IMG/VR virus record: IMGVR_UViG_3300025944_000008
DNA from: a virus
Lineage: Duplodnaviria; Heunggongvirae; Uroviricota; Caudoviricetes
Reading direction: 5' to 3' (one strand)
DNA: 64,000 bases
Below are positions 19,640 through 20,000 of the stretch, piece by piece (the stretch's first letter is position 1; the number at the start of each line of letters is the position of its first letter). A model generated the notes under the pieces. The model was given only the letters and a program-made list of their open reading frames with translations, made no database searches and was not told the DNA's origin. A program made the translations under genes and the position numbers.

Positions 19640-20000
19640 GGGGGTGTAACGGTTTCGACAGCGCAGACAGAGGAACGAGTGCGAGCCGGGGATGGTTGCA
19701 GCCTCGATAAAAAGCAGCCACGCATCAAACGCCAACGACAACGTTCGCGTGCAGTCCAACCTCTCTGCTCCTCTCCAGGCAGCAGCGTAACCGGACGGGG
19801 TAGACCGGAAACCCGACAAAAGAATCCCCGGTAAGTCCCGCAGGAGTCGACGTGCTTGCGGTAACGGTGATGACGTCGACGGTCAGACCCGGGCCGTAAC
19901 AAGGGCCTCATCTGGTGCTGGCTCCTCAACCAGCTACGCTCGTAGTACTCGCTCGGCATGAATGCGTTGGACGCGGGTTCGACTCCCGCCACCTCCACCA
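19640..20000 (+). ncRNA. ssrA: tmRNA (ssrA)
   Basis: 5' GGGGGUGUAACGGUUUCGACAGCG and 3' GGACGCGGGUUCGACUCCCGCCACCUCCACCA closely match E. coli tmRNA ends; acceptor GGGGGUG/CACCUCC pairs; internal ORF ...ANDNVRVQSNLSAPLQAAA* (candidate tag). Confidence 0.75.

Follow-up and report, generated by a model that had tools for sequence, protein, structure and literature searches.

Results

The tmRNA gene and its likeness to bacterial tmRNAs

A stretch of 64,000 nucleotides (nt) from the IMG/VR viral record IMGVR_UViG_3300025944_000008, referred to here as the window, carries a one-piece gene for transfer-messenger RNA (tmRNA, ssrA). An array of transfer RNA (tRNA) genes and, inside it, a gene for a protein resembling the PTH2 family of peptidyl-tRNA hydrolases lie elsewhere in the window, all three elements falling within a 34-kb part of it (Table 1). 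A first-pass annotation made from the sequence alone had placed a tmRNA at 19640-20000, and ARAGORN and Rfam both return a gene with these same coordinates on the plus strand. The match to the Rfam model RF00023 scores 125.2 bits (E 1.7e-48) against a gathering score of 47 bits, covers model positions 1-374 of 374 and is not truncated.

Overall the phage tmRNA is 68% identical to Escherichia coli ssrA, and none of the bacterial tmRNAs sampled is more than about 70% identical to it. The description of both ends as near-identical to E. coli tmRNA holds for the 3' end, where 35 of the last 40 nt match, but not for the 5' end, where the count is 16 of 24. With blastn, just the last 34 nt match the E. 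coli gene (91-94%), and a search of GenBank phages with the whole tmRNA returned only an attachment-site (att)-like match of 34 nt in Alcaligenes phage vB_Af_QDWS595 and no mycobacteriophage.

In that Alcaligenes phage the last 34 nt of the tmRNA recur identically at 55256-55289, and two E. coli loci (L184 and L185) hold extra copies, 91-94% identical, that adjoin integrase or prophage genes. These copies are the usual attachment-site duplicates of a tmRNA 3' end and are unrelated to the phage studied here. The first 20-mer at the 5' end was considered as a pointer to the host. It is present in 47 unrelated bacterial genomes, mostly of Oscillospiraceae and otherwise of Verrucomicrobia, Chlamydiae, Syntrophia and Magnetococcales, none of which resembles the phage tmRNA outside the conserved ends, and such an inference is therefore ruled out.

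Table 1. Positions of the features of the window (PK, pseudoknot; aa, amino acids).
Feature	Position	Strand	Basis
One-piece tmRNA (ssrA) gene, 361 nt, ACCA encoded	19640-20000	+	ARAGORN, Rfam RF00023, syntenic in six relatives
Acceptor stem, 5' strand	19640-19646, pairs with 19990-19996	+	Read from sequence
Helix P2, 5' strand, linking the tRNA-like and mRNA-like domains	19659-19686, pairs with 19938-19969	+	RNAalifold, pair counts
PK1, CGGGG/CCUCG and GGUUGC/GCAGCC, immediately upstream of the tag frame	19687-19719	+	Pair counts
Tag reading frame: resume codon GCC, 19 codons (ANDNVRVQSNLSAPLQAAA), stop UAA	19731-19790	+	ARAGORN
Helix P5, CUGCU/AGCAG, over the end of the tag frame	19765-19785	+	RNAalifold, pair counts
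PK2, CGGG/CCCG and CCGG/CCGG	19796-19831	+	Pair counts
PK3, CCGCA/UGCGG and GUCGACGU/ACGUCGAC	19838-19880	+	Pair counts
Last domain, two hairpins where PK4 would lie: UCAGA..GGGCC/GGCCU..UCUGG and GCUGG/CCAGC	19884-19934	+	Read from sequence
T-arm, GCGGG UUCGACU CCCGC	19973-19989	+	Rfam, pair counts
Long hairpin (GAGGUAGGGC ... GUCCUACCUC), separated by 10 nt from the tmRNA 5' end	19574-19629	+	Conserved structure in relatives
Single-domain response-regulator receiver gene (CheY-like, 122 aa)	20047-20415	+	PF00072, 47 bits
Marker protein, 317 aa	17655-18608	-	
Array of 43 tRNA genes for 18 amino acids (no Cys, no Trp)	44117-53460	-	ARAGORN, Rfam
Three tRNA-like genes adjoining the PTH2-like gene	44117-44344	-	ARAGORN, Rfam
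PTH2-like gene, 111 aa, inside the tRNA array	44614-44949	-	PF01981
Adenylosuccinate synthetase homologue, best PHROG the PurZ-type phrog_1211	27553-28920	+	PF00709, 205 bits
MVP-like protein, 931 aa, major-vault-protein shoulder domain, weak Vault_3 repeat	30828-33623	+	PF11978, E 1.4e-23
WGR, PARP regulatory and PARP catalytic protein, 474 aa	40464-41888	+	PF05406, PF02877, PF00644; E 2.4e-33
Fusion of a DnaJ domain with a protein-kinase-like domain; protein with weak likeness to Cpn10 (GroES)	25249-26322; 15444-15884	+; -	Both kept in relatives
Nucleic-acid repair and modification gene set	8439-9932; 28917-30350; 61637-62305; 33724-34263; 56919-57551	+; -; -; +; +	

Conservation of the tmRNA fold

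Related genomes were sought through a marker protein encoded 1 kb upstream of the tmRNA, which has 64 homologues in metagenomes and is on record from contigs as long as 210 kb. Nine contigs carrying such homologues were fetched, six with marker identities of 61-68% and three with 43-50%. The six contigs with the closer orthologues are syntenic with the window (they share the PurZ-like, DnaJ-kinase, PG-binding and Peptidase_C1 genes), and all six have a tmRNA about 1 kb from the marker gene, called by ARAGORN in L174, L175, L176, L177 and L182 and by Rfam (122 bits) in L180. The alignment used for the pair counts below comprises the seven syntenic tmRNAs, the pseudoknot stems having been added by hand.

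Applied to this alignment, RNAalifold recovers P1, P2, P3, P5 and the T-arm, and compensation is seen in 19 of the 58 pairs. Standard pairs occupy 88.8% of the cells, compared with 33-46% when the partners are slid along the alignment, and 25 of 76 pairs have changed on both sides, compared with 3-10 in the slid controls. None of 500 shuffles reaches the observed values.

The acceptor stem pairs, as had been claimed, over 7 bp (GGGGGUG with CACCUCC, G1-C357 to G7-C351) and contains the alanine identity pair G3:U355, formed by G at 19642 and U at 19994. G3:U is present in all seven tmRNAs; compensatory changes occur at acceptor pairs 5 and 6, and pairs close to G3:U switch between G-C and A-U and between U-A and C-G among the relatives. 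Helix P2 shows compensatory changes in seven pairs. In PK1 one stem is paired in 100% and the other in 88% of cases across the seven sequences, with four compensatory pairs, and both stems covary. On the 3' side of the tag frame, putative pseudoknots PK2 and PK3 fit the sequence and show some covariation. The second stem of PK2 is 100% paired and reads CUGA/UCAG in three relatives, and its first stem exchanges a C-G for a G-C pair in L182. The first stem of PK3 is 100% paired with one compensatory change, while its second stem is 72% paired among the four long-tag relatives. The T-arm is again 100% paired, and two of its pairs show compensatory changes. Both the covariance-model match and the architecture of pseudoknot (PK1) and tag frame, the absence of which had been named in advance as evidence against a tmRNA, are therefore present.

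The tag peptide

The coding part of the tag occupies gene positions 92-151, with the resume codon GCC at 92 and UAA at 149-151. An internal frame running from ANDN to AAA had been put forward as a candidate tag; ARAGORN reports the same frame, ANDNVRVQSNLSAPLQAAA followed by a stop, and it is open in all relatives. Their tags read ANDNVRVQSESFAPLQVAA (L175), ANDNVRAKSNFSAPVRAAA (L176), ANDNVRDMSVPASSLRAAA (L182), ANDNSYNDVIADQRAAA (L180), ANDNSYAADQRAAA (L174), ANDNMFIADQRAAA (L177) and ANDNMYPAASLRAAA (L002). The last of these comes from an IMG/VR contig of 109 kb on which small array-embedded proteins are about 55% identical to those of the window and the tmRNA sits at the end of an array of 20 tRNAs.

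Eight related tmRNAs keep this frame and both of its ends, and show synonymous changes in it. The ANDN start is invariant, GCC, GCA and GCG all occur as resume codon, the three terminal alanine codons vary at third positions only (bar one change of Ala to Val), and the arginine at position -4 is encoded by CGG, AGG or CGC. This synonymous variation argues that the peptide, and not the RNA alone, is under selection. Hence, as far as comparison of sequences can tell, the tmRNA is a gene maintained by selection on both its RNA structure and its tag peptide.

Counting the alanine borne by the tmRNA, the added tag begins AANDN, as in proteobacterial tags. The tags of the clade end in [R/Q]-A-A-A, with one ending QVAA; in the extended clade, eight of nine end in AAA after R or Q, as against the common ALAA. 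Tags ending in AAA also occur in bacteria, namely in metagenome-assembled genomes (MAGs) of Parachlamydiaceae, Magnetococcales and Clostridia. By sequence the [R/Q]AAA ending is thus a trait of the clade, though not unique to it. A screen in E. coli found the terminal Ala-Ala to be critical for degradation by ClpXP, with Leu strongly favoured at -3, the antepenultimate position, and Arg or Ala favoured at -4; Ala at -3 was not one of those depleted (PMC10862746). Since the phage tag keeps its C-terminal Ala-Ala, it most likely remains a degron, and tagged fragments would most likely still be fed to host proteases of the ClpXP type.

Sequence around the tmRNA and its wider distribution

A long hairpin followed by a T-rich run precedes the tmRNA, and its structure is kept with a differing sequence in L175, L176, L182 and L180. 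It could be either the terminator of an upstream open reading frame (ORF) of 62 aa or a precursor leader for tmRNA processing. On the other side the receiver gene starts 47 nt after the tmRNA, and a receiver gene also adjoins the tmRNA in L177, L180 and L182. A papain-like Peptidase_C1 gene is conserved within a few kb of the tmRNA in the relatives.

A degenerate pattern for ANDN-tagged tmRNAs has matches in more than 119 IMG/VR contigs, and in at least 12 of these (100-358 kb) the tmRNA adjoins a tRNA array. Scans of IMG/VR with two single window proteins found no close relatives, and the relatives from a profile scan were all at 30-40% identity; relatives of window proteins occur on IMG/VR viral contigs of 100-185 kb. 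Two IMG/VR contigs hold tmRNAs of the permuted, two-piece type: L189 at 9159-9584, with the tag ANDDNFRVAA, and L190 at 4907-5248, with the tag ANDDNYMELRLAA. They belong to distant phage relatives that a protein profile had brought up, with 30-34% identity in a conserved 340-aa protein, and in L189 a tRNA with a CUA anticodon lies beside the permuted tmRNA. Comparison of these sequences suggests that related phages hold different tmRNA types.

The tRNA array and the PTH2-like protein

Rfam confirms 36 of the 43 tRNA genes at its gathering score, and small ORFs and HNH endonuclease genes are interspersed among them. The PTH2-like gene that the first-pass annotation had put at 44614-44949 is borne out by PF01981, whose cut-off of 23 bits it passes with a score of 32.3 (E 1.3e-7) in an alignment that spans 106 of the 115 positions of the model. 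Homologues are few, with six in a large protein collection. A profile of eight PTH2-like homologues matches five solved Pth2 families, AF2095 (1rzw) first at 3.7e-7 and then MJ0051, Ta0108, PH1539 and human Bit1, and the motif RxDL...G.LAAQ..HAA is conserved. The AlphaFold model is weak because only seven sequences were available (predicted local distance difference test 60, predicted template-modelling score 0.54); nevertheless its 12 best Foldseek matches in the PDB are all Pth2 proteins, the best with E 4.8e-3 and the template-modelling scores ranging over 0.44-0.54. By sequence the protein is a member of the Pth2 family, and it probably shares the Pth2 fold.

Records of the exact protein come from 24 metagenomic contigs, some of them 0.2-1 Mb long. 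A 68% identical homologue (P0068) goes back to a JGI contig of 207,040 bp, as does L174, one of the relatives with a tmRNA.

The three tRNA-like genes that adjoin the PTH2-like gene have abnormal anticodon loops. One lacks U33; in the other two, position 37 is C and the closing pair is mismatched. ARAGORN assigns the trio as Tyr-AUA and twice Leu-AAG, and Rfam scores them at 50-62 bits. The relative L181 has a similar trio, one member of which has a two-base ‘anticodon’.

Probable phage origin of the window

Among the 67 PHROG families matched by the window are rIIA (322 bits, E 2.6e-95) and rIIB (206 bits, E 2.1e-60). The 85 ORFs scanned match 23 Pfam families, including HNH endonucleases, ThyX, NUDIX, a SpoU methylase and a HAD domain of RNA repair, and there is no integrase among them. 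Gene density and strand blocks are phage-like, and G+C is about 59% throughout. Within the phage collection, homologues of the MVP-like protein occur only in huge phages of 735 kb and 462 kb (35-36% identity), and L180 and L182 encode it as well. The rIIA protein is less than 36% identical to that of any cultured phage, and the window has no close cultured relative. Judging by its gene content, the window is part of a large phage that has not been cultivated. Genes for capsid, terminase or tail were not identified within the 64 kb, and a megaplasmid origin therefore keeps a small weight.

Discussion

Proposed function and its alternatives

We put at about 0.8 the probability that the tmRNA gene in the window is functional and belongs to a large uncultivated phage. 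The steps of the model that follows are taken from established bacterial trans-translation. The tmRNA would be transcribed with its 5' hairpin leader, and the RNase P of the host would presumably trim the transcript. The host's alanyl-tRNA synthetase would charge it with alanine via the G3:U pair, whereupon host SmpB and EF-Tu would bring the charged tmRNA to ribosomes stalled on broken or stop-less messenger RNAs (mRNAs). The ribosome would switch to the internal frame at GCC (19731), append A-ANDNVRVQSNLSAPLQAAA (20 residues) and terminate at UAA. Termination would free the ribosome, and ribosomes would in this way be kept for phage protein synthesis while mRNAs are cut during infection by phage nucleases, host nucleases or host defence toxins. 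The PTH2-like protein, if active, would recycle tRNA from peptidyl-tRNA that has dropped off, and it and the 43 tRNAs are plausibly part of the same translation-support strategy.

The first-pass annotation had spoken of a ‘translation-rescue and autonomy package’. Its three components, the tmRNA, the PTH2-like gene and the tRNA array, are all present. The tmRNA, however, lies on the plus strand, outside the tRNA array and 24 kb from the PTH2-like gene on the minus strand; the three are therefore not one transcription unit, and ‘package’ can describe a shared function but not an operon. The interpretation is supported, with the lack of SmpB and of the Pth2 lysine, both described next, as further caveats.

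Several observations weigh against the reading as a working tmRNA gene with an active hydrolase beside it. At E<=1e-4 no SmpB (PF01668) was found among the 85 window ORFs, nor does one appear in the gene tables of the relatives, and the phage tmRNA would therefore presumably depend on the SmpB of its host. In the three distant contigs, whose markers are 43-50% identical, the site has no tmRNA closer than 10 kb. In the window the PK4 region forms two hairpins and no clear pseudoknot; it is not alignable among the relatives and is weakly supported. The z-score of the minimum free energy is -1.35, which is not significant, but because the RNA is pseudoknotted we do not count this as an argument against a tmRNA. 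A terminator-like hairpin abuts the tmRNA 5' end, and a sigma-70 promoter scan around the tmRNA found no promoter-like site upstream, from which it follows that the tmRNA is probably cut from a longer transcript. As for the PTH2-like protein, the lysine of the GK motif in the solved Pth2 structures (1rzw, 2zv3, 1rlk and 1wn2) corresponds to Thr11 in the window and to T, D or V in its homologues. The DAGxT of the solved proteins is replaced by REPD, invariant in the subfamily, with DAG aligning to E68-P69-D70. The window protein thus has neither of the conserved active-site residues sought, the GK Lys and the DAGxT Asp, and in the absence of that lysine its hydrolase activity is not assured. 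This Lys and Asp correspond to K18 and D86 of S. solfataricus Pth2, which Fromant et al. (2005) reportedly found to be catalytic.

The idea that the tmRNA is a passenger, whether a gene taken from a host not long ago or what is left of an integration site, is largely refuted and keeps next to no weight. In its favour, phages commonly use fragments of tmRNA 3' ends for attachment, the last 34 nt are found exactly in the Alcaligenes phage and beside integrase or prophage genes in E. coli, and the permuted type in distant relatives suggests repeated capture from hosts. Yet what the window holds is a full-length gene, at the same syntenic position in seven genomes whose marker has diverged to 61-68% identity, with compensatory changes and synonymous codon variation; there is no integrase in the window, and no sampled bacterial tmRNA comes closer than about 70%. 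Such syntenic conservation and covariation argue that the tmRNA is maintained and is neither an att remnant nor a passenger. We attach very little weight, too, to the window being a bacterial chromosome or megaplasmid that combines a tRNA array unit with a tmRNA, as in mycobacteria. Units of tRNA arrays with a tmRNA do occur on chromosomes and plasmids (PMC5966550) and there are large plasmids with suites of translation genes (PMC7162821), which together with the missing capsid, terminase and tail genes would fit such an origin. The rIIA and rIIB matches, the PurZ-type match, the 67 PHROG families, an MVP-like protein that matches only huge-phage genomes, protein relatives on IMG/VR viral contigs and the phage-like gene density and strand blocks all speak for a phage instead. 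A different proposal accepts the gene and concerns the fate of its products: the phage tmRNA would act mainly as a competitor, its tag, with a long clade-specific middle part, being a weaker or differently routed degron, such that rescued phage polypeptides escape rapid ClpXP or go to another protease. The prevalence of AAA after R or Q in place of ALAA, the strong preference for Leu at the antepenultimate position in the E. coli screen (PMC10862746) and the Peptidase_C1 gene conserved nearby are consistent with this. We nevertheless regard it as unlikely, given that the Ala-Ala end, the critical determinant for ClpX, is retained, that Arg at -4 is itself linked to proteolysis in E. coli and that Ala at -3 is not depleted there (PMC10862746). 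Because AAA tags occur in the ordinary bacteria named above, the AAA end may simply copy the tag of the host.

It may also be asked whether the PTH2-like protein is a general peptidyl-tRNA hydrolase at all. It is possible, though doubtful, that it is inactive or acts on a different ester such as the N-acetyl-aminoacyl-tRNA that GNAT toxins produce; it would then serve anti-defence and not the housekeeping recycling of tRNA. The replacement of the GK lysine and of DAGxT by the invariant REPD points in this direction, as do the abnormal anticodon loops of the three adjoining tRNA-like genes. On the other hand the PF01981 match is above threshold, the fold matches are all to Pth2, and the invariant Glu68 and Asp70 could supply a carboxylate; moreover the gene is conserved and lies within tRNA arrays both here and in Myxococcus phage Mx1, as expected of a tRNA-directed enzyme. 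A bolder version joins the two questions and proposes a branch of trans-translation particular to this clade, in which the [R/Q]AAA tag would reroute rescued polypeptides and the Lys-less PTH2-like enzyme would act on a non-standard substrate such as a toxin-modified aminoacyl-tRNA, the two jointly serving as a counter-defence against host toxins that attack tRNA or mRNA and not as a simple boost to translation. We consider this decidedly improbable.

Comparison with known systems

Huge phages are known to encode tmRNA and SmpB (Al-Shayeb et al. 2020, PMC7162821), the tRNA arrays of cluster C mycobacteriophages contain a tmRNA and a PTH2-like gene (PMC5966550), and the Sinorhizobium jumbo phage AP-J-162 has 66 tRNAs, a tmRNA and peptidyl-tRNA hydrolases (PMC11242549). 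The combination of tRNA array, tmRNA and PTH2-like gene, known from cluster C mycobacteriophages and jumbo phages, is therefore not new.

Cluster C mycobacteriophages of the Bxz1/Myrna type are similar in being large phages of the lytic type with a near-complete tRNA set, one tmRNA, a PTH2-family gene within the array and HNH endonucleases lying between the tRNAs. They differ in that neither tblastn with the PTH2-like protein nor blastn with the tmRNA matches any mycobacteriophage, and in that the tmRNA here lies 24 kb outside the array and has a proteobacterial-looking ANDN...AAA tag. The metagenomic huge phages (PMC7162821) are likewise uncultivated, on contigs of more than 200 kb, and have many tRNAs, a tmRNA and other translation genes; those of 735 kb and 462 kb encode homologues, 30-36% identical, of both the MVP-like and the PTH2-like protein. 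The relationship is nonetheless distant, and the huge phages are reported to encode SmpB, of which none was found in this window.

With E. coli ssrA (RF00023) the phage gene shares the acceptor stem with G3:U70, T-arm, P2, PK1, an alanine resume codon, a tag of the form ANDx...Ala-Ala and, putatively, downstream pseudoknots. Its tag, however, has 19 codons in place of 10 and ends QAAA instead of ALAA, and the frame is closed by a single stop codon. Unlike in bacterial one-piece tmRNAs, the last pseudoknot appears to be replaced by hairpins.

The closest cultured homologue of the PTH2-like protein (46% identity) is encoded by Myxococcus phage Mx1 (WNM70121.1), where it is annotated as a peptidyl-tRNA hydrolase and its gene also lies within a tRNA array, beside HNH endonucleases. 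By contrast no tmRNA is annotated in the 40 kb of Mx1 examined, and blastn gives no tmRNA match. Mx1 was rejected as a relative that might hint at the host, as only the PTH2-like protein matches and the marker next to the tmRNA has no Mx1 homologue. Archaeal and eukaryotic Pth2 proteins (1rzw/3erj, 2zv3, 1wn2, 1xty and 1q7s) resemble the phage protein by hidden Markov model and fold search and share RxDL...G.LAAQ..HAA, whereas the phage protein has Thr for the GK Lys, REPD for DAGxT and a shorter region around helix 2.

Phage tmRNAs have been listed in genome surveys and hardly studied. Seven syntenic phage tmRNAs with clear covariation provide good comparative evidence for selection on RNA fold and tag, and this evidence, the clade-wide [R/Q]AAA end and a phage PTH2-like subfamily without the canonical lysine are the points of interest here. 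Neither the tag end nor the Lys-less subfamily alters an established principle. Both make simple experiments possible, such as tag-dependent degradation assays (with the tag as AANDNVRVQSNLSAPLQAAA) and Pth complementation.

Other genes of the window

From its PurZ-type match, the adenylosuccinate synthetase homologue might indicate a phage with 2-aminoadenine in its DNA. The WGR-PARP protein has the architecture of a eukaryote-like poly(ADP-ribose) polymerase and is conserved in near-identical contigs. The nucleic-acid repair and modification set comprises two ATP-dependent ligases, one of them fused to a LigD 3'-phosphoesterase domain, a ‘Swiss Army Knife’ RNA-repair HAD domain, a SpoU-type 2'-O-methyltransferase and a NUDIX hydrolase. 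Taken with the tRNA array, these predicted genes suggest repair of tRNA or other RNA.

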